Source of the DNA: a bacterium
Lineage (GTDB): Bacteria > Patescibacteriota > Patescibacteriia > UBA9934 > GWF2-40-263
Assembly: GCA_020057555.1 (NCBI GenBank)
Contig: JAGVFR010000026.1
Span: 22,631-86,630 of the forward strand
Direction: 5' to 3'
Length of the DNA stretch: 64,000 bases
Below the pieces are notes generated by a model. That model was not told the origin of the DNA. It was given only the letters and a program-made list of their open reading frames with translations, and did not search any database. Position numbers and translations under genes: made by a program. Shown one piece after another: positions 6,453 to 61,183 of the stretch; within the stretch, counting starts at the first letter, position 1, and the number at the start of each line of letters is the position of its first letter.

Positions 6453-6525
6453 AGAGCGGTTGTGCTATGTCTCCGTGCCAGCGGACTCCTCGCCGCTGTT
6501 CACTTCGACATAGCACAACCGCTCT
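6453..6525 (-). repeat. conserved-core hairpin element, copy 1 (core on minus strand); terminator position downstream of prfA
   Basis: 19-bp perfect stem AGAGCGGTTGTGCTATGTC/GACATAGCACAACCGCTCT around a core that is the reverse complement of GAACAGCGGCGAGGAGTCCGCTGGCACGGAGACATAG; on the prfA strand it is followed by a T-tract. Confidence 0.7.
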
Positions 6526-7968: not shown

Positions 7969-8048
7969 AGGTTTTTGACACGCTTTCATACGTGCCATGC
8001 GTGCGAAGATTAACAAGCTGGGTTAACATTGTCAAGAGTTTGAGAAAA

Positions 8049-8084
8049 TAGTAGAAAAGTAGCAAAGTAGTAGAGTAGTAAAGG
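8049..8084 (+). repeat. GA-rich AGTAG-type leader repeat directly upstream of the queA start
   Basis: GTAGAAAAGTAGCAAAGTAGTAGAGTAGTAAAGGG; family also found at 16514, 18168, 27951, 34119. Confidence 0.6.
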
Positions 8085-8089
8085 GAATT

Positions 8090-9181
8090 ATGACACAAAT
8101 TACAGAATTCAATTATCATCTTCCAAGAGAGTTAATCGCACAATGCTCTGTCCAGCCTCGCGACCAATCACGGCTCATGGTTTTGGATAAACAAACAGGG
8201 AAGTTGAACCACAAGAAATTTTTTGAGATTGTTGATGAGTTGAAAACAGGTGATGTACTTGTATTTAATGATACAAAAGTTTTTAGAGCCCGGCTCAAGA
8301 CGCAAAATGGAATTGAGATATTTTTGTTGCGTGCGCGGGAAGACGATATTTGGGAAGTTTTGGCGCGTCCGGGAAAGAAGTTGCAGGTTGGACAAACACT
8401 TTGTATTGAACATGAAACAGAAAAACTTTGTGGAGAAGTGATGTCAAAACAATCAGACGGAACTGTTTTGATAAAATTTGATCGCGTACCAAATGACGTA
8501 ATCGCGTTTGCAAATATATACGGAGAGATTCCTATTCCTCCTTATGTGAAAAATATACCGGAGCGATTGGAAGATTATCAAACGATCTATGCAAAAGAGA
8601 CAGGTTCTGTTGCGGCGCCAACAGCCGGTTTTCACTTCACAGAAGATCTTATGGAAGAATTAAAATCAAAAGGCGTGCAATTCGAATTTGTAACACTTCA
8701 CGTTGGAATTGGAACTTTTCGTCCAATGAAAACAGAAACGATCGAGGAACATGAAATGCACAGCGAGTTTGTTTCTGTCTCAAAAGAGACAGCAGATCGG
8801 ATCAATCAAGCAAAAAAAGATGAGCGACGCGTGATCGCTGTTGGAACGACAACAGTTCGTACACTTGAAGGAGTCGCAAATTATCCCCTGAGCGAAGGTC
8901 AATTAGGCCTTCGACAGGCTCAGGCAATAATTGACCGAAGTCGAATGGGTAATTTTTATCTTCCAGATGGTTTTACAGGCGACGTTAATCTATTTATCAA
9001 ACCAGGCTTTGATTTCAAAATAATTGATGGGCTTATAACGAATTTTCATTTACCAAAATCAACATTACTGGTTTTGGTTTCGGCTTTTGCTGGAAGAGAA
9101 AATGTTTTGCGCGCGTATGAAGAAGCAGTTGCGCAACAGTATCGTTTTTTTTCCTTTGGCGACGCGATGTTTATTGCTTGA
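8090..9181 (+). CDS. queA: S-adenosylmethionine:tRNA ribosyltransferase-isomerase
   Basis: N-terminal FNYHLPRELIAQ and overall QueA layout; carries an in-frame insertion of the 25-nt dispersed repeat at 8908-8932. Confidence 0.9.
   Translation: MTQITEFNYHLPRELIAQCSVQPRDQSRLMVLDKQTGKLNHKKFFEIVDELKTGDVLVFNDTKVFRARLKTQNGIEIFLLRAREDDIWEVLARPGKKLQVGQTLCIEHETEKLCGEVMSKQSDGTVLIKFDRVPNDVIAFANIYGEIPIPPYVKNIPERLEDYQTIYAKETGSVAAPTAGFHFTEDLMEELKSKGVQFEFVTLHVGIGTFRPMKTETIEEHEMHSEFVSVSKETADRINQAKKDERRVIAVGTTTVRTLEGVANYPLSEGQLGLRQAQAIIDRSRMGNFYLPDGFTGDVNLFIKPGFDFKIIDGLITNFHLPKSTLLVLVSAFAGRENVLRAYEEAVAQQYRFFSFGDAMFIA
8908..8932 (+). repeat. dispersed 25-nt repeat CCTTCGACAGGCTCAGGCAATAATT (copy inside queA coding sequence)
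   Basis: Exact 25-mer also at 57313-57337; near-identical copies at 34817-34841 and 20178-20196; flanked here by the 9-bp inverted repeat GGTCAATTA/TAATTGACC. Confidence 0.8.
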
Positions 9182-11736: not shown

Positions 11737-11994
11737 ATGTCCGAAGACGTAATAGTCGAGATGGACAAGTTCGGCTATCGTCCAGCAACTCACATCGAAG
11801 CATACGAGTTCCAGAAGAAGAATCCTGATCTTCAGCGTCAGTTTCTGCTCATCGCTCTTGGTTCGTTCGTGGTGATCGACTGCGGCCGGTGCTTCACTGT
11901 GTTGGGCGGTAATTCCGGCAGGCGCGTCTTCGACAGCCTCTGGTTCGACCGCAGGTGGCTTGCCGACTGCCGCTTTCTGTTTGTCCGCAAGTAA
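11737..11994 (+). CDS. hypothetical small protein
   Basis: AGGGAG SD before ATG 11737; ends at a clear terminator; C-terminal third is GC-rich. Confidence 0.35.
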   Translation: MSEDVIVEMDKFGYRPATHIEAYEFQKKNPDLQRQFLLIALGSFVVIDCGRCFTVLGGNSGRRVFDSLWFDRRWLADCRFLFVRK

Positions 11995-15271: not shown

Positions 15272-16534
15272 ATGAAAAATTCTATTGAATCTATTCACGC
15301 TGACGAGATATTAGATTCACGCGGAAATCCAACTGTTCAAGTTTCGGTTTTGTTAAAAGATGGAACTGTTGGTTTAGCATCTGTGCCAAGCGGTGCTTCA
15401 ACAGGGTCACACGAAGCGCTCGAACTGCGAGACAATGATAAAAAAAGATACAAAGGAAAAGGTGTGTTGAAAGCAGTTCACAATGTCAATACGACGATTG
15501 CAAAAGCTCTGTACGGAATTGATGTTTCAAAACAACGACAGATCGATCAGATCATGATTGATCTTGATGGTACAAAAAACAAAAGTCGTCTTGGTGCAAA
15601 CGCAATTTTAGGTGTGTCGCTCGCGTGCGCTCATGTTGCGGCAAAAGCAAAAAAGATGCCGCTCTATTCGTATCTGCGTTTTGTGTTTGATATTTCACAT
15701 AAAAAATATCGTTTACCGATTCCAACAATGAACGTGCTAAACGGCGGTGCGCATGCAGGATGGATTTTGGATTTTCAGGAATTTATGATTGTTCCGGTTC
15801 AACATTCGTTTAAAGAGCGAATGCGTTGTGGCGCGGAAGTTTTTTATTCACTTGGAGAACTTTTGAAAAAGAAAGGTTTTACTACATTGAAAGGAGATGA
15901 GGGTGGCTACGCGGTGAAGCTGAAAAAAAATGAAGAAGCTTTGAAATTTATAATGAAAGCGATCAAGCAAGCTGGATATCAAGCTGGAAAAAATGTTTTT
16001 CTTGCGATCGATCCGGCAGTTTCAGAACTTTATAATAAAAAAGACAATCGTTATCATCTAAAAGTTGACAATAAGACTTTGACACAAAAGCAAGTGATTG
16101 CTTTGTGGAAGAGTTGGATTAAAAAATATCCGATTATTTCTTTGGAAGATGGATTGGATCAAGATGATTGGAATGGTTGGGTTGAAATGACAAAACAGAT
16201 CGGAAAGAAAGTCGCGCTTGTTGGCGATGATTTTTTTGTGACAGATGTTGAACGATTGCAAAAAGGAATAAAACTTGGCGCAGGAAATGCAATTTTAATC
16301 AAAGTGAATCAGATTGGAACTTTATCTGAAGCAATGGATGCGATTTTGCTTGCCCAACAGTTCGGGTATAAGGTTTCTGTCTCTCATCGTTCTGGAGAAA
16401 CAGAAGACACGACAATCGCTGATTTGGCTGTTGCTGTGAATGCGGATTTTATCAAAACAGGTTCTTTGTCGCGTTCAGAACGGCTTGCGAAATATAATAG
16501 GTTGTTGGAAATAGAGGAGGAAGTAGCAAAGTAG
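15272..16534 (+). CDS. eno: enolase
   Basis: ILDSRGNPTVQV and SGETED motifs. Confidence 0.95.
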   Translation: MKNSIESIHADEILDSRGNPTVQVSVLLKDGTVGLASVPSGASTGSHEALELRDNDKKRYKGKGVLKAVHNVNTTIAKALYGIDVSKQRQIDQIMIDLDGTKNKSRLGANAILGVSLACAHVAAKAKKMPLYSYLRFVFDISHKKYRLPIPTMNVLNGGAHAGWILDFQEFMIVPVQHSFKERMRCGAEVFYSLGELLKKKGFTTLKGDEGGYAVKLKKNEEALKFIMKAIKQAGYQAGKNVFLAIDPAVSELYNKKDNRYHLKVDNKTLTQKQVIALWKSWIKKYPIISLEDGLDQDDWNGWVEMTKQIGKKVALVGDDFFVTDVERLQKGIKLGAGNAILIKVNQIGTLSEAMDAILLAQQFGYKVSVSHRSGETEDTTIADLAVAVNADFIKTGSLSRSERLAKYNRLLEIEEEVAK

Positions 16535-16565
16535 AAAGGGGAAAGGGAGAAAAGGGGTGAGTGGT
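16514..16565 (+). repeat. GA-rich AGTAG / AAGGGGTGAGTGG repeat overlapping eno stop and forming the gpmI SD region
   Basis: AGTAGCAAAGTAGAAAGGGGAAAGGGAGAAAAGGGGTGAGTGG; related to 18168-18215 and reverse-complementary to the CT-rich arms at 18216-18272 and 37141-37189. Confidence 0.6.
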
Positions 16566-16571
16566 AATGAA

Positions 16572-18167: not shown

Positions 18168-18272
18168 AAAAGGGGGTGAGGGGGATAGGTGGAAAGTGTG
18201 AAAGGGAAGCACCCTTACCACTCGCCCCTTTTCTCCCTTACTCCCTTTCCAGTTTCCACTCACCTCATTTAA
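18168..18272. repeat. long imperfect inverted repeat (GA-rich arm + CT-rich arm) between gpmI and nth
   Basis: AAGGGGGTGAGGGGGATAGGTGGAAAGTGTGAAAGGGAAG ... CTTACCACTCGCCCCTTTTCTCCCTTACTCCCTTTCCAGTTTCCACTCACCTC; the CT-rich arm abuts the nth ATG. Confidence 0.6.
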
Positions 18273-19495: not shown

Positions 19496-20566
19496 ATGAA
19501 AGCAATCATTCTTGCAGGAGGAGTTGGCACAAGACTTTGGCCAATGTCTCGCCAGAAAAAACCAAAACAATTTTTTGAAATTGTAAATGATGTTCCTCTA
19601 ATAAAAGAAACTTACAATCGTCTTCTTAGATTGTTGCCGTCTGAAAAAATATTTTTTTCCATTTCTCCTTCGTTTGACAATCTTTTACACGAGATACTTC
19701 CAGAAATTTCAAACGATCATATTTTGATTGAACCTGAAAAACGAGACACCGGTCCTGCAATGGGTTACGTTGCCGCGTTAATGGAACTTTATGATTCTGA
19801 TGAACCGATAGTATTTATCCCATCCGATCATAATATTAAAGATGAAGAAATGTTTTTGCGTACACTTGAGGTAGGAGACATGCTTGTAAGAAAAACAGGA
19901 AAACTTCTTGACATAGCTGTGACTCCGACTTTTCCAAGCACTGTTCTTGGATACACTAGGATTGGTGAATTGTATGACACAATAAACGACGTCAAGGTTT
20001 ATCGTTTCGCTGGTCACACAGAAAAACCTCCATACGAAGTTGCAAAACAATATCTTGAAAAAGGATCATATTTGTGGCATGCAAATTATTACATGTGGAC
20101 ACCGCGCAAGTTTATGGAAGCGTTTGAAACATACGCGCCAGAGATTGGAAAAGTGTTGAGAGAAATTCAACATACAACCCTTCGACAGGCTCAGGGTATA
20201 GATGTTTTCTTCAGATCGCTTCCCAAAATATCTTTTGATTATTCTGTTACAGAAAAAATGGATCCACAAGAAGTTCTAATAATGAAAGGAAATTTTGGTT
20301 GGAGCGATATTGGTGCATGGGATACTTTGTGCGATCATCTTTCAGATAAAGGACAAAATGTTACAAAAGGAAAGTGTTTAATGATAGATACAAAAGGATC
20401 TTTGGTGTATGCGCCTGAAAATAAACTTGTTGCAGTATTAGGCATGGAAGATGTTATCATTGTTGATACTGGTGACGCCTTGCTTGTGTGTCCAAAATCA
20501 CGCGCACAAGAAGTTAAAAAAATTGTAGAAAAACTTCTGGAAAGTGGAGACGATAAACTAATATAA
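19496..20566 (+). CDS. sugar-1-phosphate nucleotidyltransferase (mannose-1-phosphate guanylyltransferase-like)
   Basis: MKAIILAGGVGTRLWPMSR motif; carries an in-frame copy of the dispersed repeat (encodes TLRQAQGI) at 20178-20196. Confidence 0.8.
   Translation: MKAIILAGGVGTRLWPMSRQKKPKQFFEIVNDVPLIKETYNRLLRLLPSEKIFFSISPSFDNLLHEILPEISNDHILIEPEKRDTGPAMGYVAALMELYDSDEPIVFIPSDHNIKDEEMFLRTLEVGDMLVRKTGKLLDIAVTPTFPSTVLGYTRIGELYDTINDVKVYRFAGHTEKPPYEVAKQYLEKGSYLWHANYYMWTPRKFMEAFETYAPEIGKVLREIQHTTLRQAQGIDVFFRSLPKISFDYSVTEKMDPQEVLIMKGNFGWSDIGAWDTLCDHLSDKGQNVTKGKCLMIDTKGSLVYAPENKLVAVLGMEDVIIVDTGDALLVCPKSRAQEVKKIVEKLLESGDDKLI
20178..20196 (+). repeat. dispersed repeat copy (CCCTTCGACAGGCTCAGGG) inside the nucleotidyltransferase CDS
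   Basis: Matches the first 17 nt of the 25-nt repeat core. Confidence 0.7.
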
Positions 20567-27910: not shown

Positions 27911-27950
27911 AAAAAACGAACGCAAGAGGCAGATTGTGGATAAGTATGGG

Positions 27951-28066
27951 AGAGTAGATAAGTAGTAGAGTAGCAAAGTAGAAAAGGGAATTGATTGGTG
28001 ATTTTACTGCAAATTTTTCAACCCTCTGCTACTATGCTACTCTTCTACTCTGCTACTTTTTTATCC
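27951..28066. repeat. AGTAG-family inverted repeat pair (GA-rich arm, CT-rich arm) in the lexA/metK divergent intergenic region
   Basis: GATAAGTAGTAGAGTAGCAAAGTAGAAAAGGG ... CTCTGCTACTATGCTACTCTTCTACTCTGCTACTTTTTT; CT arm ends 5 nt before the metK ATG. Confidence 0.6.
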
Positions 28067-28067
28067 T

Positions 28068-29117
28068 ATGTTCAAAACAGTTGAATCAGTAACAATGGGC
28101 CAACCTGACAAAGTCTGCGATCAAATCGCTGAAGCTATTGTTGATGAGTATTTACGTCGTGATACACATGCAAATGTTGATATTCATGTTTTTGGAGCAC
28201 ACGGAATGTTAATGGTCGGTGGCGAGGTAAATTCAAGCGCTGATTTTGATATTGGAGCGCTTGCCAAAAAAGTCTATCAGGAAATTGGTTATCCAGATGA
28301 CATTGAAGTTTTTGTGAATATAGAAACACCATCTGAAGAAATGAAGCATGTTAAAAACGGTGTGCGCGATACAATTGTAATAAACGGATACGCAACAAAT
28401 GAAACACGCGAACGTTTACCAAGAGCTGTTGTTTTCGCACATACGCTAGCGCGAAGACTTGATGATTTGCGCAAAACCGATCCTAAGTTTTCATGGATGA
28501 AACCAGATGGAAAAGTTCAAATTTCAATGCAAGGCGATCGTGTGCAAGCCGTAACAGTTTTAGCCTCGCATCACGTCAGCATTGAAGCGAGAGATGTAAA
28601 AACAGCATTGCTTGAACGTCTTGTCATGCCAGCGATTGGCGAAGACGCTGTGCAGATTTTTATCAATCCTATTGGGGAATTTACTGTTGCAGGATTTCGA
28701 GGTGATTCAGGCGCGAGCGGTAGGAAAATTTGTGTTGATACATACGGCGGTCTTATTCCTCATGGCGACAAGTCGTTTGTTGGAAAAGATCCATTGCGCG
28801 CAGAACGAGCCGGCTCATTCATGGCAAGATATGTTGCTCGTGATCTTGTTGAGCAAGGATTGGCCGCTTCAGTTTTGGTGAACGTTGTTTATACGATCGG
28901 AAAAGCAGAGCCGATTTATATCAACGCAACAGGTGTGTGTGGAAAATCTCAAGGCGGAAAAATTGATTTGACTGATGTTGTAAAACAGAAATTCGATTTT
29001 CGTCCTGAAGCAATTGTTGAACGTTTGCAACTTTGTCAGCCAATATATCAGAGAATGGCAGTGTATGGATATTTTGGTCGAGAAGGTGCACCTTGGGAAT
29101 TAAAAGTGATACAATAG
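28068..29117 (+). CDS. metK: S-adenosylmethionine synthetase (bacterial type)
   Basis: ESVTMGQPDKVCDQIAEAIVDEY N-terminus and GRKICVDTYGG / GKDPLRAERAGSFMARYVA motifs align with bacterial MetK. Confidence 0.9.
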   Translation: MFKTVESVTMGQPDKVCDQIAEAIVDEYLRRDTHANVDIHVFGAHGMLMVGGEVNSSADFDIGALAKKVYQEIGYPDDIEVFVNIETPSEEMKHVKNGVRDTIVINGYATNETRERLPRAVVFAHTLARRLDDLRKTDPKFSWMKPDGKVQISMQGDRVQAVTVLASHHVSIEARDVKTALLERLVMPAIGEDAVQIFINPIGEFTVAGFRGDSGASGRKICVDTYGGLIPHGDKSFVGKDPLRAERAGSFMARYVARDLVEQGLAASVLVNVVYTIGKAEPIYINATGVCGKSQGGKIDLTDVVKQKFDFRPEAIVERLQLCQPIYQRMAVYGYFGREGAPWELKVIQ

Positions 29118-30178: not shown

Positions 30179-31334
30179 TATGTCAAAGAAACACTGGCTG
30201 ATTATTTTATCGCTCGTGTTTTTGATTGGAATCATTATCATTCTGAAGCCGTCCTTTTGGACGGATGAAGAATCTCGCGGGATCCTTCGTTTAACTCAAG
30301 ATGACAAAGGAGGACAGAGGACGACAGAGAATGAGGTGGTCGCACACATTCCTCTTCCAGACGAAGTTCGTGGATTATATTGGACAGCTTCAACTGCCGG
30401 TTCTGAACGATCTGACGAGTTGCTTTCATATATGAATGATCATGGACTCAATGCAGTTGTGATTGATCTTAAGATGGATAATGGTCAAATTGCGTTTATT
30501 ACAAAAGATGAAGCATTGAGTGTTTATCAACAAACAGAATCAGCGATTGGTGATTTAGATGGTCTTCTCACGAAACTTTATGATAGTGGAATTTATAGGA
30601 TTGCTCGTATTGCTATTATGCGCGACAAAAAGTTTGGAGAAATACATCCTGAATTTGCGATGAAACAATCAAATGGCAATTTTTGGACAGATAAAATTGG
30701 TTCAGTTTGGGTTGATCCTGCCGCCCCAGAAGTCGCGCAATATGCGATTGCGCTTGCGCGTGAAGCTTATGCACGTGGGTTTGATGAAGTTCAATTTGAT
30801 TATGTTCGTTTTGCTTCAGATGGATCAATAAACTCGATCGTCTATCCTGTTTATAGTGGAGAAAAAAGTAAGGTTGAAGTAATGCAGAGTTTTTTCAAAA
30901 CAGTTGGAGAAACAATGCAGAAAGAAAAAATTCCTGTTTCGTTTGACGTTTTTGGTATGACTTTTTGGTCGTTTGATGATTTCAACATTGGCCAGCGACT
31001 TATTGATGTGTTGCCTTATGCTGACTTTGTTTCACCAATGGTTTATCCGTCTCATTATGTTGACGGGTTTGAAGGTTTTGCGAACCCGGCTGAATTTCCG
31101 TATGAGATAGTTAAGCGTTCGCTTAATGAAGGAACGAGAATAATTCACGGTTTTTACGCTGATTCAGATGTTGAACTTCGCGCGCATTGGAGGCCGTGGC
31201 TTCAGGATTTTGATATTGGCGCAGTGTATACATCTGATTTGGTTGAAGCGCAGATAAAAGCGACTCGCGATGCTGGCGCTTCTGGTTGGATACTTTGGAA
31301 CGCTCGCAATGTGTACGAACCCGCGGATTATTAA
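30165..31334 (+). CDS. putative TIM-barrel glycoside-hydrolase-like protein (GHL/DUF4015-like)
   Basis: N-terminal TM; LNAVVIDLK block resembling COG1306-type predicted glycosidases; weak. Confidence 0.45.
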   Translation: MKQNNMSKKHWLIILSLVFLIGIIIILKPSFWTDEESRGILRLTQDDKGGQRTTENEVVAHIPLPDEVRGLYWTASTAGSERSDELLSYMNDHGLNAVVIDLKMDNGQIAFITKDEALSVYQQTESAIGDLDGLLTKLYDSGIYRIARIAIMRDKKFGEIHPEFAMKQSNGNFWTDKIGSVWVDPAAPEVAQYAIALAREAYARGFDEVQFDYVRFASDGSINSIVYPVYSGEKSKVEVMQSFFKTVGETMQKEKIPVSFDVFGMTFWSFDDFNIGQRLIDVLPYADFVSPMVYPSHYVDGFEGFANPAEFPYEIVKRSLNEGTRIIHGFYADSDVELRAHWRPWLQDFDIGAVYTSDLVEAQIKATRDAGASGWILWNARNVYEPADY

Positions 31335-31335
31335 A

Positions 31336-31405
31336 GGAGCGTGGAGCTGTGTCGCAGGGAACAGCGGCGAAGAGTCCGCTGGCCCGGAGACATAGCTCCA
31401 CGCTC
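31336..31405 (+). repeat. conserved-core hairpin element, copy 2; terminator position after the GH-like gene
   Basis: Stem GAGCGTGGAGCTGTGTC/GACATAGCTCCACGCTC around core GCAGGGAACAGCGGCGAAGAGTCCGCTGGCCCGGA; followed by ATTTAATTTATTTTTT. Confidence 0.7.
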
Positions 31406-31423
31406 ATTTAATTTATTTTTTGT

Positions 31424-34118: not shown

Positions 34119-34165
34119 AGGTGGAGATAGTAGTTAGTAGCAGAGTAGCATAGTAGCGGAAGGTT
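34119..34165. repeat. AGTAG-family repeat abutting the greA start (CT-rich in gene sense)
   Basis: GGTGGAGATAGTAGTTAGTAGCAGAGTAGCATAGTAGCGGAAGG. Confidence 0.6.
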
Positions 34166-34219
34166 GAAAAATTAAACAAAAAACCACCCAGCTTTACGAG
34201 GAGGGTGGCAGATGAGAGA

Positions 34220-34807: not shown

Positions 34808-34816
34808 TGTAGTTTG

Positions 34817-34841
34817 CCTTCGACAAGCTCAGGCAATAATT
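34817..34841 (+). repeat. dispersed 25-nt repeat copy (CCTTCGACAAGCTCAGGCAATAATT) in the divergent promoter region
   Basis: 1 mismatch to the 8908 copy; flanked by CATTGTAG/CTATAATG inverted repeat. Confidence 0.8.
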
Positions 34842-34854
34842 CTATAATGTCTTC

Positions 34855-36252
34855 ATGCTTTCTCGAATTACTGAAAAAACTTTCTATCAATACATCAAAT
34901 GCCCGAATTGGGTTTACTTTGATGTGCATGCATTTGAAAAACGAGTTCGTGATCCTCTTATGGATCGCTTGATTGATGATGGGCTTCTTGATGAAAAACA
35001 GCGTGAGATCATTTCTGATCGCACTGACATGGTAGAAGTTACATCTGAAGATCCTGATGAAGCGTTTCGACAAACACTTGAGTTTATGCGCGAAGGTCGT
35101 CAAACGATTTTTCACTCTGTACTCATTGATAAAAATTTTGTTGGACATCCTGATGTGCTTGAAAAAGTTGAAGGGCGTTCGAAGCTTGGTGATTTTTATT
35201 ATGTTGCGGTTGATCTTAAACGTTCACGTTTTTTACGCGACGATCATAAATTTCAAGGATGTTTTTATGCTGAACTTCTTGAACGAATTCAAGATGTGAA
35301 GCCTGTTCAAGGTTACATCATCACACCTGACAAAATTGTTTTGCCATATTTGATTAGTGAGTTTGAAGGAGAATTCACTCTTACACTTTCAGAGATTGAA
35401 AAGATTATTGTTGGCACACAGCCAGTTCATTTTGTAACTTCAGGATGTAAACAATCACCATGGTTCAAAGAATGTCGTGGTGAATCCGAAACGTGCGATG
35501 ATTTGTCGTTATTGAATCGAGTTTGGCGTCAAGAAGTTGCTCGTTTGTTAAAAGCAGGAGTCAACACAATATCGGAACTTTCGCTAAAATCTTTGGTTGA
35601 TCTTGAGCGTTTGGCTCCTGATGTTAGTTCATCTCGGCTTGAGATTATGCGCGATCAAGCAATTGCGATAAAGGAGCATCGGCATATTTTTCGTGGAACG
35701 GTTGAACTTCCTGTTGCAAAGATCGAAGTTTTTTTTGATATTGAAAGTGATCCGCTTCGAGATTTTGATTATCTTTTTGGAGTGCTTGTAGTTGAAAATC
35801 GCAGTGAATCGTATCAATCGTTTTTTGCGGTAACTCCAGCGCAAGAAAAAGACGCGTGGGATGAGTTTGTCGCTTTTGTTGAAGGACATTTGGACGCGCC
35901 GATTTATCACTTTGGTCAGTTTGAAGTTGAAGTTGTTAATCGTTTTAGCGCGCGATATGGGATTTCTGCGATTGCGCGAGAAGCGCTTGAACGTAACATG
36001 ATTGATTTGCTTGAAGTGATTCGTCCTGCTGTAATTTTTCCTTTGTCATTTTATTCGCTCAAAGATATTGCCGCTTATTTGGGTTTTGAGTGGCGTGCTT
36101 CTGACGCATCTGGTGCGAATTCTGTTTTGTGGTTTGAAGAATGGTTGAAGAAAAAAAATCAAAAGTTGTTGCAAAAAATTCTTGAGTATAATGAAGATGA
36201 CGTGCGCGCAACTGCTCATGTAAAAAAATGGTTATGTGAAAATGCAATATGA
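34855..36252 (+). CDS. RecB-family (PD-(D/E)XK) nuclease with C-terminal RNase-H-like domain, TM0106-type
   Basis: N-terminal Cys-containing nuclease domain (YQYIKCPNWVYFD); C-terminal EVFFDIESDPL exonuclease-like motif. Confidence 0.6.
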   Translation: MLSRITEKTFYQYIKCPNWVYFDVHAFEKRVRDPLMDRLIDDGLLDEKQREIISDRTDMVEVTSEDPDEAFRQTLEFMREGRQTIFHSVLIDKNFVGHPDVLEKVEGRSKLGDFYYVAVDLKRSRFLRDDHKFQGCFYAELLERIQDVKPVQGYIITPDKIVLPYLISEFEGEFTLTLSEIEKIIVGTQPVHFVTSGCKQSPWFKECRGESETCDDLSLLNRVWRQEVARLLKAGVNTISELSLKSLVDLERLAPDVSSSRLEIMRDQAIAIKEHRHIFRGTVELPVAKIEVFFDIESDPLRDFDYLFGVLVVENRSESYQSFFAVTPAQEKDAWDEFVAFVEGHLDAPIYHFGQFEVEVVNRFSARYGISAIAREALERNMIDLLEVIRPAVIFPLSFYSLKDIAAYLGFEWRASDASGANSVLWFEEWLKKKNQKLLQKILEYNEDDVRATAHVKKWLCENAI

Positions 36253-37139
36253 AAACAAGTTGGTTTCGAAATTGTGCGGAGTTAATTATCTTGATCGCTA
36301 TCATTGCCACGGTTTACACACAACGCGTGGGGATTTCGCAGTGGTTTCGAGAAATGATGGAGCCGTCTGTGCCAGAGGCAGTGGAGTTTGAAAAAATAAC
36401 AGAGGAAAAGGAAGAAGGTAGTCGCGGGCTTCAGCCCGCGCAAGCGCCAGTCATCCCGAGTGCCGTCGATGGATCTGAAGAAAAAATATTGCCTGAACCT
36501 GTTGAAGGCAGTATAGATGATGTAGTTGTCACTTCGACAAGCTCAGTGGATAAAATTTTGCCTGTTGAAATCAATCTCGCTGTTCCTTTTACATCTCAAG
36601 CTCCGCACGCGAATTGGGATTTACCATATAAAGAAACATGCGAAGAAGCATCGCTCTATATGGTTGATGTTTATTATAAAGGAGTAAAAGCGGGGAAGAT
36701 TGCGGCTGATACTGCGGACGAGGAGATTAAAAAAATTATAGAATTTGAAAAAGAAATTTTTGGATATTATGAAGACACAACCGCAGAACAAGTTGGAATT
36801 CTTGCGGAAATGATGTATGGTCACGAAAAAATTGAACTGATCGAAAATCCAACTGTTGAACAAATTAAAAAACATGTTGCTGAAGGACATCCGGTTATTG
36901 TTCCTGCGGCAGGACGAGAACTTGGTAATCCGAATTTCACAGCGCCTGGTCCGATATATCACATGTTAGTGATTCGCGGATACACAAAAGATGGTAAATT
37001 CATCACAAATGATCCGGGCACAAAAAACGGCGAAGCATATGTTTACGATTTTGACACAGTTATGAACGCGATGCATGATTGGAACAATGGTGACGAGATC
37101 ACGGAAGGAAAAAAGGTAGTACTAATTGTTTATCCATAA
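36249..37139 (+). CDS. peptidase C39-like domain protein (YvpB-like), membrane-anchored
   Basis: N-terminal TM; FTSQAPHANWDLPYKETCEEAS Cys-containing block resembling C39-like domains. Confidence 0.45.
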   Translation: MKTSWFRNCAELIILIAIIATVYTQRVGISQWFREMMEPSVPEAVEFEKITEEKEEGSRGLQPAQAPVIPSAVDGSEEKILPEPVEGSIDDVVVTSTSSVDKILPVEINLAVPFTSQAPHANWDLPYKETCEEASLYMVDVYYKGVKAGKIAADTADEEIKKIIEFEKEIFGYYEDTTAEQVGILAEMMYGHEKIELIENPTVEQIKKHVAEGHPVIVPAAGRELGNPNFTAPGPIYHMLVIRGYTKDGKFITNDPGTKNGEAYVYDFDTVMNAMHDWNNGDEITEGKKVVLIVYP

Positions 37140-37140
37140 T

Positions 37141-37189
37141 TCCAATCTTCCTTTCCCTTACCACTCGCCCCTTATCCCCCTTTCTCTAT
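37141..37189 (+). repeat. CT-rich arm (CTTACCACTCGCCCCTT family) abutting the start of the gene at 37190
   Basis: TCCAATCTTCCTTTCCCTTACCACTCGCCCCTTATCCCCCTTTCTCTAT then ATG; shares CTTACCACTCGCCCCTT with 18216-18232. Confidence 0.6.
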
Positions 37190-37667: not shown

Positions 37668-37840
37668 GTCGTTGCGAAGCCGAACCATGTCTCCGGGCCA
37701 ACGGACTTTTCGCCGTTTGTGTTGTCCGGTCTGGCTTTCAGACAGACATCGGCCAACCCGTTTCGGAGGTACGAAGCCAAGCAGTTGGCTTCTTTACTCC
37801 TCCTCTACTCCCTTCGACATGGTTCGAGCTTCGCAACGAC
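37668..37840 (-). repeat. conserved-core hairpin element, copy 3 (expanded, core on minus strand) filling the whole intergenic gap before xseA
   Basis: 24-bp stems GTCGTTGCGAAGCCGAACCATGTC / GACATGGTTCGAGCTTCGCAACGAC; core is the reverse complement of CACAAACGGCGAAAAGTCCGTTGGCCCGGAGACATG plus about 85 extra structured nt. Confidence 0.7.
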
Positions 37841-48233: not shown

Positions 48234-48308
48234 GGATCAGTTTGCATCATGTCGTAAGGAACAACGGCGAAGAGTCCGTTGGCCCGGAGATATGGTGCAA
48301 ACTGATCC
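48234..48308 (+). repeat. conserved-core hairpin element, copy 4
   Basis: Stem GGATCAGTTTGCATCAT / ATGGTGCAAACTGATCC around core GTCGTAAGGAACAACGGCGAAGAGTCCGTTGGCCCGGAGAT. Confidence 0.7.
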
Positions 48309-55708: not shown

Positions 55709-55718
55709 GGAAAGAGCT

Positions 55719-55838
55719 ATAGCCATCACATTATAAAATGGGACTTTAGACGACTTACCTGTGGATGGGATGCGAAGGACAAGCAGACCGCCACAGGAAA
55801 GGATGGATAAATCCTATTTCATAATGTGATGGCTATAC
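55719..55838. repeat. 120-nt element bounded by perfect 17-bp terminal inverted repeats
   Basis: TATAGCCATCACATTAT ... ATAATGTGATGGCTATA; internal CCTGTGG...CCACAGG and GGAT..ATCC sub-hairpins. Confidence 0.6.
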
Positions 55839-56186
55839 AGTCTTGCGACCGCGCGGTCGTTGGACATTACATTATGATTCCGTACTTATAAAGATGAAAA
55901 ACAAGCAGGTTGCCATTTTTAATTTTTTATGGAGTATGGAACCATAATGTAATGTCCACATTCCTCTCACAGGTCTTCATTGCAAGCATGGAGCAATGGA
56001 AAACTGTGATTGGAGGGCGACGTTGGAAAGATATCCTTCGTCGCCCAAGAGTTTGCCTTCTCGGCTGGAGGCTCTGCTTCCTCTTGGCTCACCGTTTTAG
56101 GAAGGTGACTCCTTTTTGTCGCGTGTTTCAGATTGTAGTGGAATGTGTTAACTCACTTTGCCCTCCTAAATGTTTGGTTTTTTTGG

Positions 56187-57197
56187 CTACGAGAGCATGG
56201 CCTGGAGCTTGAGCTCGGCCATACGGATCACGCCAGGAACCGTCCAGTTCTTGATCGCACGGACGTCCGCGGCGGTCAGACCAGAGTTGCGAATTTTGAT
56301 AGCCGCGCGACCGAGTTGACGGTACTCGTCCTTGCTCACGCCCGGGACGATCTTGCCCTGAACGCGGCGTGGCGGACGAACCAGACCTAGACCGCATGCG
56401 AGCAAACTTCCGTCGCGCAGGGTTTCGACGTGCGAGCGAGTTTCGGCGATTCTTGCGTCAACGCGTTCTTCGGCCTCGCGCTGAAGCCGTGCTTCCTCGG
56501 TCGCTCTCTCGTCCGCGAACATATTCTCGATTGCCGCCATTGCCTCGGGCACGGTCTGCGATCCGAGCGGCAGAACGGTCTGTGCGCACTTGGGGCAGAA
56601 CGACTTCTGAAGGAGACCATGAACGGTCACCTCCTCGAGCCTCTTGACCCCGATAGCGCGCATGATTGTGCTGAACACGACCGCGACCCTTGCCTCGTTC
56701 ATCGGAACGAGTCGCAGACACTGTCCGAACTTTCCCTGACAGACCACGTGGTCCACGCCGTCCTTCGCAATGACGAGTCCCGGGGTGAACCTGACCTCGG
56801 GCTCGAGAACGGGCTCGGGCGCTGGAGCGGGTGCGGCGGGAGCCTTCTTGGTCTCGGCCTTGTGGACCTTGACCTTCGCCGGCTTCGGTGTCTCGACCTT
56901 CGGAGCCGGGGACGGGTTGGCCTCGGTCTTGGGCGAGACGATCTCCTTGGCCATGATTTCGACAGCCTCGATCGAGGAGCAATCCCTCCAGTTCTGGCCC
57001 GTGACCTCGATGATGTGCATGGCGCGACCGAGCTCGACGTGGGATGCGAGGAAGTTGATCGAGCCCTCGAAGTGACGCTCAACCACACGGCCGAGCTCTT
57101 CGAGTTCGCCAGGGAGACCGGGGCGGGAGTCGTCCTGCGGGATGATCTGAAGTCCGGGAGCCATCTGCGCGACCATGCGTAACCTCCAAAAAAGCAT
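56187..57197 (-). CDS. hypothetical protein on high-GC island (orphan, Pro/Ala/Lys-rich linker)
   Basis: Minus-frame codon positions sampled at 56761-56820: GC1 75%, GC2 40%, GC3 85%; GC switches to host-like at the stop codon; other overlapping ORFs are GC artefacts. Confidence 0.6.
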   Translation of the reverse strand: MLFWRLRMVAQMAPGLQIIPQDDSRPGLPGELEELGRVVERHFEGSINFLASHVELGRAMHIIEVTGQNWRDCSSIEAVEIMAKEIVSPKTEANPSPAPKVETPKPAKVKVHKAETKKAPAAPAPAPEPVLEPEVRFTPGLVIAKDGVDHVVCQGKFGQCLRLVPMNEARVAVVFSTIMRAIGVKRLEEVTVHGLLQKSFCPKCAQTVLPLGSQTVPEAMAAIENMFADERATEEARLQREAEERVDARIAETRSHVETLRDGSLLACGLGLVRPPRRVQGKIVPGVSKDEYRQLGRAAIKIRNSGLTAADVRAIKNWTVPGVIRMAELKLQAMLS

Positions 57198-57312
57198 GTG
57201 TCCTGGGTCCCGAACCTACACCACGTAGGAACGGATCAATTTATAGAACCTATCGGTCCTACGACCTTAGCAGTTTGGAAATTGTTATACCTTGAGCGAA
57301 GGAAAATTACTG

Positions 57313-57337
57313 CCTTCGACAGGCTCAGGCAATAATT
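57313..57337 (+). repeat. dispersed 25-nt repeat copy between the two high-GC genes
   Basis: Exact match to 8908-8932; flanked by AAATTACTG/CAATAATTT. Confidence 0.8.
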
Positions 57338-57463
57338 TGCCGGAGTCGGAGGGTTAGATTCAATTTCTAAACTATTAAGATCGTTCCGGGTGGCGTGTTC
57401 AGGGAAAGAAATCCCTTTACACACCACCCGGAAGATATAGAGCGGAGAGAGCGGAAAGAACTA

Positions 57464-58003
57464 CTAGCCGTTGGCGACCTTGCGGGCCTTGCCCTTGACG
57501 GTCACGATCGGCGTCTCGACGGCGGCGGGAGCCTCGGCGGGCGTGGAGACCGGAGCCGGTGTCACGGCGACCGCGGCCTTGAGCTCGGCCACAACCTGCG
57601 GGCCGACCTGCTCACCGATCGGGGTCGAGGCGAGAGCAGGCTTGGCGGGTGCGGAAGCGGCGGGCTTGGGCGTGAGCTTCGGCGCGGGCTTCTCGGACTT
57701 GGACTTCGGGAAGTAGGACATCGTGTTGACCATGTCCTTGAAGTCCAGGAGCGGTGCGAGGGCCGAGTTCTGCCCCATGCCGTGCTCGATGTTGTCGATG
57801 GCCTTCGTGAGAAGGGCCTTTCCGACGTCTTCGATGCAGCGCATGGTGTAGTACTCGGTGCCGACGTAGTCGTCGCGCTTCTCCGGGTCGAGGCCGAGCA
57901 CCTCGCACGCCTTCGCGAAGATCTTGTCGCGCAACTCCCTTTCGAAGATGCGTCCGTAGAGCGGGGAGGGATCGGTCGAGGGGGCCTGGAAGCTGGTCTT
58001 CAT
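57464..58003 (-). CDS. hypothetical protein on high-GC island (orphan, Pro/Ala/Lys-rich tail)
   Basis: GC3 20/20 in a sampled 60-nt stretch; N-terminal globular part then KPAPKLTPKPAASAPAKPALAST linker and a Lys-rich C-terminus. Confidence 0.6.
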   Translation of the reverse strand: MKTSFQAPSTDPSPLYGRIFERELRDKIFAKACEVLGLDPEKRDDYVGTEYYTMRCIEDVGKALLTKAIDNIEHGMGQNSALAPLLDFKDMVNTMSYFPKSKSEKPAPKLTPKPAASAPAKPALASTPIGEQVGPQVVAELKAAVAVTPAPVSTPAEAPAAVETPIVTVKGKARKVANG

Positions 58004-58573
58004 TGAAATTCTCCTTTTCGATGGCCTGCCTCCAGCCGAACCTGACCCCTGTGGTCAAATCCGCTTTCAGCTCGATGACGGCAAATGTTGTCACCATTGA
58101 GCTGAATCGGATTTTCCCAGAAATACGGAGGTAAAGTGTGACCCATTGACCTGCCCGAAGGCTGGTGTAGATCGTGAGTCTCTTGCGTATGAATTCAGTC
58201 AGCCTAGGCCGAATGAACACATTTGAGACTCTCTGCCAATGTCGTCTTGTAAGACTCGATTGGACAGCTTTACTCTCTCCTCCGTGTTTCTGGGTCGGTT
58301 TTTAACAAAAAACCGGTTGTCGTATATATCTGATCTTTTTGGCAAGAGTCAGACGTACACAACAACCGGTTCTTTTATTCAAAGAATGGCTATTGACTAC
58401 CTTTATACCGTGGGTAGTGCACGGACTCTCTCCCAAAAGTCCTATTTGTAAGAATCATCTTAACGGTCATACTATATCATATTCTGTCAAAACTGTCAAG
58501 ACCCGTATGTCGGTGAGGTTAGAATTTTAGCTAAAATTAGACAAAAGCTACTGTCAGGATTTTTTAGACTTAT

Positions 58574-60628: not shown

Positions 60629-61183
60629 ATGCATGCGTATCTAAATTCAAAAAAACCAGAGTTTCAAATCACGATCGAACATTTGCAAAAGGAGCTAGGG
60701 TCTTTGCGCACTGGTCGCGCAACTCCTGCGCTTGTTGAAGATATAAAAGTGAGCGCTTATGGATCGATTATGGAAATTCGCGGTCTCGCCTCACTTAATG
60801 TTCCAGATTCAAAAACAGTTGTGATTGATCCGTGGGACAAAAGCTTAATTCAAAACATTGAAAAAGGAATTCGAGACGCCGGTGTTGGTTTGAGTCCGGT
60901 CGTTGATGGAAATGTTTTGCGCATCATGGTTCCACAAATGACTGAAGAAAATCGAAAGCAAATTGTAAAAATCATGAAAGAAAAACTCGAAGAGTCACGA
61001 ATTCGCACGCGTGGAATTCGCGAGGAAATTCGTGAAGAAATAATGAAGAAGGAAAAAGAAAAAGAATTTTCTGAAGATGAAAAGTTCAAGCTGTTTGATG
61101 AATTGGAAAAGCTAACAAAAGATTATAACGAGCAGGTCACACAAATGGGAGAAAATAAAGAGGAAGAAATAATGACTGTATGA
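60629..61183 (+). CDS. frr: ribosome recycling factor
   Basis: RRF layout with Arg-rich C-terminal helix; start at ATG 60629. Confidence 0.85.
   Translation: MHAYLNSKKPEFQITIEHLQKELGSLRTGRATPALVEDIKVSAYGSIMEIRGLASLNVPDSKTVVIDPWDKSLIQNIEKGIRDAGVGLSPVVDGNVLRIMVPQMTEENRKQIVKIMKEKLEESRIRTRGIREEIREEIMKKEKEKEFSEDEKFKLFDELEKLTKDYNEQVTQMGENKEEEIMTV

Follow-up and report, generated by a model that had tools for sequence, protein, structure and literature searches.

A dispersed hairpin repeat with an invariant 11-nt centre in queA, manC and intergenic DNA of a Patescibacteria contig

The 64-kb stretch of DNA analysed here (the window) contains a 25-mer, CCTTCGACAGGCTCAGGCAATAATT, that lies within the conserved gene queA and again, unchanged, in the spacer between two genes of a GC-rich island. 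This raises the question of what the sequence is, and how it came to lie inside a conserved enzyme. QueA homologs placed the host in Candidatus Uhrbacteria (Patescibacteria, or Candidate Phyla Radiation, CPR), and a 100%-identical QueA was present on a 98.5-kb JGI contig. The two exact copies are on the plus strand, at 8908-8932 and 57313-57337. A copy with one mismatch lies at 34817-34841 (+), and one with three mismatches, overlooked in an earlier reading made from the sequence alone, on the minus strand at 36484-36508. The number of copies expected by chance in the 64 kb, estimated from shuffled sequences, was 0, which bears out the claim of the sequence-only reading that this repeat is dispersed well beyond chance. 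A 16-nt core, allowing up to three mismatches, gave eight matches in the window against 0.23 expected. These included one in manC (20180-20195; a 17-nt core starts at 20179) and one, at 36532-36547, that forms an inverted pair with the copy at 36484. The two weakest matches resemble chance or decay; they lie at 11928 and, within the gene for ribosome recycling factor (RRF), at 60725. There are five main copies in the 64 kb, and the density of the repeat in the window is about 1 per 8-10 kb.

The hairpin unit and its arrangements

What had been described as a 25-nt entity is in fact the tip of a unit that forms a hairpin: the units at 8908 and 57313 have ~65 nt in common, not merely 25 (consensus TGAGCGAAGG-N9/10-GCCTTCGACAGGCTCAGGCAATAATT-N2-CCGrAGTCGrAgGG). 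Each unit has an invariant centre of 11 nt, whose two strands read TCGACARGCTC and GAGCYTGTCGA, enclosed by a stem that is complementary but variable in sequence (4 bp or longer) and extended by a tail on one side only; its size is 19-27 nt, or 65 nt in the nested form. Conservation beyond the stem was seen on the tail side only, the tail being TTATTG/CAATAA in AT-rich CPR genomes and often CCGTTCG/CGAACGG (GCGAACGG/ACGAACGG) in GC-rich phyla. The flanks of contigs containing a 21-mer of the CPR-type unit showed two recurring modules, U (gCCT-TCGACARGCTC-AGGc-AATAA) and U' (TTATTc-CCT-GAGCYTGTCGA-AGGg), the latter approximately the reverse complement of the former. The copies in the window are as follows:

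8885..8949 (+): composite nested hairpin in queA; the outer unit, CCCCT-GAGCGAAG...GAAGTCGA-ATGGG, is split by the inner hairpin GGTCAATTA-GG-(CCTTCGACAGGCTCAGG)-CAA-TAATTGACC; it encodes PLSEGQLGLRQAQAIIDRSRMG, and weak outer pairs (ATTAT/TAAT) lengthen the element to 8880-8953
8908..8932 (+): the original 25-mer, a U unit with the CPR-type tail CAATAATT; the stem CCT/AGG encloses the 11-nt centre TCGACAGGCTC
20178..20196 (+): solo 19-nt hairpin unit in manC, CCCT-TCGACAGGCTC-AGGG, with no CPR tail; the frame reads TLRQAQG
34816..34841 (+): solo U unit with tail, one mismatch, R=A variant, 14 nt upstream of the start of open reading frame (ORF) 34855-36252 (RNase_H_2/Cas4-like)
36484..36549 (-): inverted doublet of U' ACT-GAGCTTGTCGA-AGT (36531-36549), a 23-nt spacer and U GCCTTCAACAGGTTCAGGCAATATT (36484-36508, three mismatches), within the N-terminal linker of the peptidase_C39-like ORF 36249-37139; the frame reads LPEPVEGS...TSTSSV
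57290..57353 (+): second composite nested hairpin, CCTT-GAGCGAAG-GAAAATTA-CTG-(U)-CAA-TAATTTGC-CGGAGTCGGA-GGG, in the spacer between two minus-strand ORFs in an island of 60% GC; it and the queA copy have the same 25-mer

Covariation of the stem was measured in 91 units that had not been ascertained by the search patterns. Pairing was found in 74.5% of the stem cells versus 50.3% in shuffles (0/500), and the covariation score was 0.611 versus 0.212, with slid controls at 0.09-0.27. About 20 distinct stem types were present, among them CCCT/AGGG, TCCT/AGGA, GGCT/AGCC, TGGT/ACCA, TGCT/AGCA, CACT/AGTG and CATT/AATG. The inner stems of nested forms also covary (GGTCAATTA/TAATTGACC and GGAAAATTA/TAATTTGCC in the window, GGCAAGTTAT/ATAACTTGCC at locus L100). 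In both strands, composite copies gave better folds than did shuffles (z = -2.7 to -3.7; -3.2/-3.7 for the queA composite); the folding of solo copies was no better than that of shuffles. Each copy had earlier been credited with inverted repeats on its flanks in which the CAATAATT end takes part. These were recovered at 8908 and 57313, where the stems covary with those of L100, but were weak at 34817 (fold z = -0.9), and the manC copy at 20179 has no CAATAATT tail.

Among the matches listed, 121 U copies could be evaluated for their arrangement: 52 were solo, 49 had U' upstream, 12 had it downstream, four had it on both sides, and four were nested in a split U' (the two long window copies, L100 and L058). 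A partner was present within 110 nt of 57% of the CPR-type copies, and inverted doublets had their tails outwards in 63 cases and inwards in 17, the outward form dominating in CPR and other phyla alike, with a median gap of 33-36 nt (again among the matches listed). In all four nested cases the U hairpin sits between the duplicated CGAAG of a 12-nt loop variant, GAGCGAAGTCGA, and the same point of the loop is occupied in 30+ units by GC-rich mini-hairpins. The sequence between TGAGC and TCGAA fell into five length classes: 3 nt (YTG, 169 cases among the matches listed), 4 nt (GAAG and the like), 12-14 nt (GA-GCNNNGC-GAG, including GCGAAGC), 15-25 nt (GA-(perfect GC-rich hairpin)-GAG) and 48-50 nt (GAAG-(U hairpin)-CGRAG). 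The loop of a unit is thus a place where expansion or insertion has happened repeatedly. To judge from its bases, the centre of the GAGC...TCGA strand may stack, beneath a loop of 5 nt, as a G-C pair together with sheared G.A pairs in tandem; the proposed fold would concern d(CCCTGAGCTTGTCGAAGGG) and the expanded GAGCGA-(hairpin)-GAGTCGA form.

Units or parts of them were also seen as short perfect tandem arrays at L036 (45 nt, three times), L112 (6396-6554) and L101 (a 74-nt U+S unit), L117, L133 and L140, which suggests replication slippage at these hairpins.

Copies within queA and manC

The queA composite is a genuine in-frame addition of ~23 aa to a conserved enzyme. The plus-strand copy is read as ...GLRQAQAII..., within the stretch ...NYPLSEGQLGLRQAQAIIDRSRMGNF... 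Alignment to the structures of T. maritima and B. subtilis QueA in the PDB breaks between residues ~264-273 and 294-296, leaving 20+ residues unmatched, and this loop is hypervariable across 34 Uhrbacteria QueA orthologs. The nearest relative (P0003, locus L241; the most identical row of alignment A1 at 84%, 79% by BLASTP) has no insert, and the empty site is visible at the DNA level. At the identical position two other orthologs (P0002/L243 and P0004/L244) have further elements built on the skeleton of the window copy (CATCCTGAGC...CGAAGGATC), and others still have different palindrome-derived peptides in the loop, including LRQAQG (P0009) and PEPVEG (P0012). In the AlphaFold2 model of QueA the mean predicted local distance difference test score (pLDDT) was 84.7 overall and 53-67 over residues 261-290, which lie between the confident elements H253-264 and E294-300. 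The low values there fit a tolerated peripheral loop.

In mannose-1-phosphate guanylyltransferase (ManC) the plus-strand unit is read as ...TLRQAQGID..., and both enzymes therefore show the LRQAQA/G peptide noted earlier. ManC has just three extra residues relative to PDB 2x5s, and no net length change relative to distant Uhrbacteria orthologs. The sequence-only reading had proposed an in-frame insertion in both enzymes; insertion is strictly demonstrated for queA only. At the nucleotide level the 19-nt manC unit is common only to a clade formed by the window, P0121, P0122 and P0123, the latter three having manC genes 83-87% identical to that of the window and one to two substitutions in the unit of each. 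Orthologs with the same residues thus also carry the nucleotide repeat, and the first refuting condition set by the sequence-only reading failed. In P0123 (L246) a further GC-rich palindromic element of 72 nt lies in frame inside the loop of the manC unit, with GAC at both junctions, and the ManC loop of other relatives contains different palindrome peptides (SFASLRMT, CHSEAEGRRISHEILRFAQDD). Columns 420-475 of QueA alignment A1 and the ManC alignment show many such unrelated palindrome-derived peptides (HPEPFDFAQGKLREGS, PACPPKPWRRRERSEGS, CHSEAEGRRISHEILRFAQDD, SFASLRMT, PPLERGE, FQGGMKGG), which makes these sites either targets of several repeat families or places that tolerate them.

Peptides of the LRQAQ, PEPVEG and PSTSSG types do recur, as stated earlier for the LRQAQG type, and they arise as six-frame translations of one DNA motif; the peptides of the coding copies in the window are alternative-frame translations of it. 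Under a stricter test, which demanded 50 or more open codons on each side of a copy, 28 of 128 unique 21-mer copies (among the matches listed) lay in long open frames. Five frames were in use (LPELVEG 9, LRQAQAI 7, PSTSSGN 7, FDKLRQ 4 and CLSLSK 1), so translation is not frame-specific.

Distribution, mode of spread and rival explanations

The CPR 21-mer was found in at least 120 metagenome contigs, far more than the four copies known at the outset, so that the second refuting condition, a genome-wide total of just these four, failed as well. A scan of GTDB with the 17-nt core, taking one genome per species, returned at least 120 stretches, and in 57 of the 120 listed there were two or more cores within 8 kb (chance ~0.008 per locus). 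Single-core stretches had a Watson-Crick fourth stem pair in 52 of the 63 listed (chance 25%). Multi-unit loci occurred in 10 phyla (Chloroflexota, Pseudomonadota, Actinomycetota, Nitrospirota, Cyanobacteriota, Planctomycetota, Myxococcota, Bacteroidota, Desulfobacterota and Latescibacterota); with Patescibacteria added, the core is present in at least 11, and the motif is not confined to CPR bacteria. The unit was present in cultured isolates of Microbacterium, Sphingomonas, Pedobacter and Thalassotalea, and multi-copy matches, all unannotated, were found on plasmid replicons of Sphingobium, Polaromonas, Variovorax and Comamonas, with up to 13 places on Sphingobium megaplasmids. At least 120 predicted viral contigs of IMG/VR matched, 42 of those listed having two or more units. 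No match was found in E. coli complete genomes or in cultured phage genomes. Searches of the full-text literature matched the motif or its peptides to unrelated primers and peptides only; figures and subscription journals lay outside their coverage, so a prior description is possible. The literature on CPR bacteria combined with palindromic or repetitive extragenic palindromic (REP) repeats yielded nothing about this element.

In GC-rich phyla, units with the tail ACGAACGG (L121-L240), taken together with that tail (..GGCTCAGGACGAACGG), resemble 16S rRNA over ~15 nt at its 5' end (GGCTCAGGACGAACG; TGGCTCAGGACGAACGCTGG). The likeness is probably a coincidence: a minority of tails fit (~6%), and in CPR bacteria the tail fails to follow the 16S rRNA sequence seen at L120 (minus strand, offset 3136).

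The repeat is probably a small hairpin-forming repeat of non-coding DNA, of the kind represented by REPs, their doublets (REPINs) and transposable elements of the miniature inverted-repeat type (MITEs), spread at the DNA level. This reading draws on what was directly observed of the anatomy of the repeat, the covariation of its stems, filled versus empty orthologous sites, nesting, the lack of strand bias and the wide taxonomic spread; the identical 25-mers in queA and the island spacer are one sign of recent activity. Units would propagate and rearrange as DNA, becoming solo, doubled (inverted, tails outwards, ~35 nt apart), tandem, or nested in the loop of a partner. New copies might land anywhere, and those in genes would persist only where the frame is kept, no stop codon arises and the surface loop is permissive. 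Such a survival filter would explain both the ~23 extra residues of QueA and the five reading frames used across loci, the inserted peptide itself presumably being without function. Propagation may proceed through extruded single-stranded DNA hairpins, and the mover could be an enzyme acting in trans or else replication template switching or gene conversion between copies.

A mobilising enzyme was sought by tblastn with TnpA and REP-associated tyrosine transposase (RAYT) sequences, followed by Pfam. Y1_Tnp (IS200/RAYT-like) genes were found at L112 (two), L134 and L142, the one at L134 having a U..U' doublet 88 nt downstream of it; the 64-kb window contains no Y1_Tnp gene. Mobilisation by a RAYT or an IS200-like transposase was rejected on present evidence, since the repeats that flank the nearby Y1_Tnp genes differ from the unit. 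DUF559 (Vsr-like) genes recur near copies but at 0.3-2 kb, never adjacent, and the two ORFs of the GC island, also considered as candidate enzymes, had no match in Pfam, PHROG or NCBIfam. The Y1_Tnp genes of CPR bacteria are themselves flanked by the classical GTAG-type REP AGTAGGGTCWGACCCTACT (1430-1500 and 2214-2245 at L249; 7572-7596 at L112), which indicates that genuine REP-RAYT systems, distinct from the unit studied here, exist in these bacteria.

Several results weigh against a mobile DNA repeat. No mobilising enzyme was found, and clustering of the neighbouring genes at 240 loci gave housekeeping genes only, with no recurrent transposase. The CPR Y1_Tnp genes (L112, L249-L258) share a single conserved context and are flanked by a different repeat, the GTAG REP AGTAGGGTCAGACCCTACT, and the Y1_Tnp gene of L134 is bracketed by hairpins of its own (GGTTCARGTT...AACYYGAACC). 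No clean rule of target-site duplication emerged, duplications of CGAAG and GAC being seen at nested junctions only. The manC unit is present without net insertion and evolves at approximately the rate of the surrounding gene. Finally, a centre that is invariant over at least 11 phyla is atypical of lineage-specific REPs and MITEs, and hints at a conserved recognition factor or function. A broader reading, which we regard as possible but doubtful, is that of one very widespread mobile or recognised DNA element, found in predicted viral contigs as well as in at least 11 phyla, with its own machinery or a conserved host partner. It would prefer hairpin loops, including its own, would build nested palindromes, and would be a general source of in-frame insertions and of the LRQAQ, FDKLR, PELVEG and LSLSKG peptides that recur in hypothetical proteins of metagenomes.

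Whether the unit acts as DNA or RNA was judged from its orientation and its stems. Among the matches listed, the 128 unique 21-mer copies lay between co-directional genes in sense (21) or antisense (20), between divergent (13) or convergent (10) genes, within genes in sense (20) or antisense (12), and at contig edges or in unknown contexts (32). Stem mismatches comprised 42 G.T and 31 A.C (p=0.24), and strand-specific RNA folding was rejected since these counts do not differ significantly. No match was found in Rfam (15) at the gathering threshold over the whole 64-kb window, and at E<=1-10 the element-rich stretches gave merely sub-threshold unrelated matches. Unbiased orientation, the use of several frames and the lack of an Rfam match indicate a DNA-level REP- or MITE-like repeat and not an RNA gene; the evidence is as expected of a DNA palindrome on which selection acts just by screening for frame and stop codons, rather than of an RNA specific to the transcript strand. 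Among the mechanisms listed in the sequence-only reading, a mobile mini-element consequently fits best and a structured RNA is disfavoured. A ribozyme or other structured RNA, for example a three-way junction or a hammerhead- or k-turn-like fold that excises itself from queA mRNA, is highly improbable. The composites do fold better than shuffles (z ~ -3), the stem covaries, and the expanded form CUGAGCGA-(stem)-GAGUCGAA is, by inspection, superficially like the hammerhead core CUGANGA-(stem II)-GAAA. However, orientation is random with respect to transcription, wobble pairs are symmetric between strands, the permuted module orders (U'>U, U>U', nested) are incompatible with one fixed fold, and the element does not match the hammerhead at A14, at the 15.1-16.1 pair or in where stem I is placed. 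When hammerhead, k-turn (box C/D) and tRNA T-loop were checked by hand, junction strands and invariant positions did not fit, the T-loop failing for the commoner R=A variant.

The remaining explanations keep the unit as DNA or dispense with a repeat altogether. About 75% of the copies are intergenic in genomes that are ~90% coding, the doublet architecture is conserved across phyla, and the invariant centre suggests recognition by something conserved; a structural element useful to the host, be it, as proposed for REPs, a stabiliser or terminator of transcript 3' ends or a site for gyrase or a nucleoid protein, with intragenic copies as by-products, would account for this. We nevertheless consider it unlikely, given the absence of orientation preference (13 copies lie between divergent genes) and of a T-run after the hairpin, the low density (~1 per 10 kb in the window), the copies within housekeeping ORFs, and the absence from E. 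coli, which excludes a universal requirement. Somewhat less probable still is a site at which a conserved protein binds the 11-nt centre as duplex or hairpin, for instance a DNA-uptake signal read by the competence machinery on which CPR bacteria rely, or a site for a factor of repair or segregation. The core is indeed invariant while stems and tails vary, both orientations occur, and the unit is found in predicted viral contigs; but a motif spanning at least 11 phyla is unlike uptake sequences, which are lineage-specific and ~10-fold denser, covariation of the stem would be needless for duplex binding, and no co-occurring gene family was seen among the neighbours. Chance similarity or ancestral coding sequence has a negligible probability and is already refuted for the five main copies. 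It would suit the unchanged protein length of ManC and the random look of the matches at 11928 and 60725, and is countered by the shuffles, the identical 25-mers in unrelated contexts, the restriction of the manC unit, at the nucleotide level, to a small clade, and the empty queA site of the nearest relative.

Other features of the window and known systems

The GC island (56100-58300; 60% GC in a ~40% GC genome) may have been recently acquired by horizontal transfer. Both of its ORFs are on the minus strand, one of 336 aa at 56187-57197 and the other, which has a tail rich in Ala and Pro, of 179 aa at 57464-58003. Just upstream lie two long hairpins, at 55718-55837 and 55861-55958, with arms of 29 and 26 nt that are 90-92% complementary, loops of 62 and 46 nt, and in both cases the sequence ...CATTATAA/TTATAATG...; the pair (55718-55958) could be an island boundary or a further palindromic element. 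A second family of dispersed repeats, with the core TGTCGCAGGGAACAGCGGCGAAGAGTCCGCTGGCCCGGAGACAT, occupies 6459-6519, 31341-31401, 37682-37717 and 48250-48296. Its copies are 85-94% identical to each other and occur in either orientation, and the one at 31341-31401 is part of a hairpin with 30-nt arms (31330-31412) between convergent genes. Purine-rich direct repeats, AGTAG(N)AAGTAG...AAAGGG, are present at 8039-8089, 16522-16567, 27945-28076 and 34136-34188, and as the complement at 18212-18247 and 37155-37186. They directly precede several gene starts, that of queA among them, and may be a lineage-specific promoter or 5'-untranslated region motif.

For annotation, the hairpin accounts for one class of puzzling insertions of low complexity, and of hypothetical proteins that are spurious, in genomes of CPR bacteria and others derived from metagenomes: they are six-frame translations of one DNA motif, an account that should aid both annotation and alignment-based phylogenomics. 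For protein evolution, it means that streamlined CPR genomes of ~1 Mb tolerate selfish palindromes within essential enzymes, and that particular surface loops of QueA and ManC are repeated landing pads. An invariant stretch of 11 nt on covarying stems, in at least 11 phyla and without a RAYT link, is unusual for REP-like DNA, and suggests that an enzyme that mobilises it, or a factor that binds it, has gone unrecognised.

DNA uptake sequences (DUS in Neisseria, uptake signal sequences, USS, in Pasteurellaceae) are lineage-specific 9-12-mers present about once per kb; the unit differs from them in its density in the window (~1 per 8-10 kb) and in the presence of its core in at least 11 phyla. 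The very small (~20-30 nt) cyanobacterial repeats of Elhai et al. (2008) are said to nest in each other and in genes and to have no known transposase. On this description they share with the unit their small size, nesting and presence in genes, and differ in sequence and in being restricted to heterocystous cyanobacteria. MITEs have terminal inverted repeats that match those of a parent insertion sequence (IS), a target-site duplication and a length of 70-300 bp; the composites described here (65-100 nt) are palindromic end to end, and no parent IS was found near the 240 loci. Coxiella MITEs (PMC5896051) share with the unit the character of a palindromic repeat. Rickettsia palindromic elements (RPEs; Ogata et al. 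2000, summarised in PMC3184786) are ~105-146 bp long, restricted to Rickettsia and fused in-frame in protein-coding genes. The queA copy is likewise a palindromic repeat in-frame in a conserved protein gene, a likeness that is functional only: the unit is 19-27 nt long (65 nested) and pan-bacterial, has no sequence relationship to RPEs, and in the present case the loops of QueA and ManC have been struck repeatedly by several palindrome families.

The closest resemblance is to REPs and REPINs, which share with the unit a short imperfect palindrome, a conserved unpaired tag on one side only, a mostly intergenic location with occasional intragenic copies, and a predominance of inverted doublets whose partners are a few tens of nt apart; stem covariation and G.T pairs have also been reported for REPs (PMC3733652, PMC3116915). 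CGTC-tagged REPs occur in several phyla, mainly as head-to-head dimers with some intragenic members, and are not associated with transposase genes (PMC3733652), but they have stems of 8-9 bp starting with A-T, loops of 4-5 nt and a CCA tail, and none of these features match the unit. With respect to REPs and REPINs as a whole, the unit is a dispersed short palindrome with doublets as its main organised form, whereas their tag and a cognate RAYT were not found. It has neither a GTAG nor a CGTC tag (its tail being CAATAA in CPR and GCGAACGG/ACGAACGG in GC-rich phyla), the RAYT-like genes seen were flanked by other repeats with no cognate REPtron, and its core spans at least 11 phyla while most REP families are lineage-specific. 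In REPs the loop is short or else varies, and that of the unit is an invariant 11 nt; it is by this invariant centre, shared across phyla, that the unit differs from all described families.

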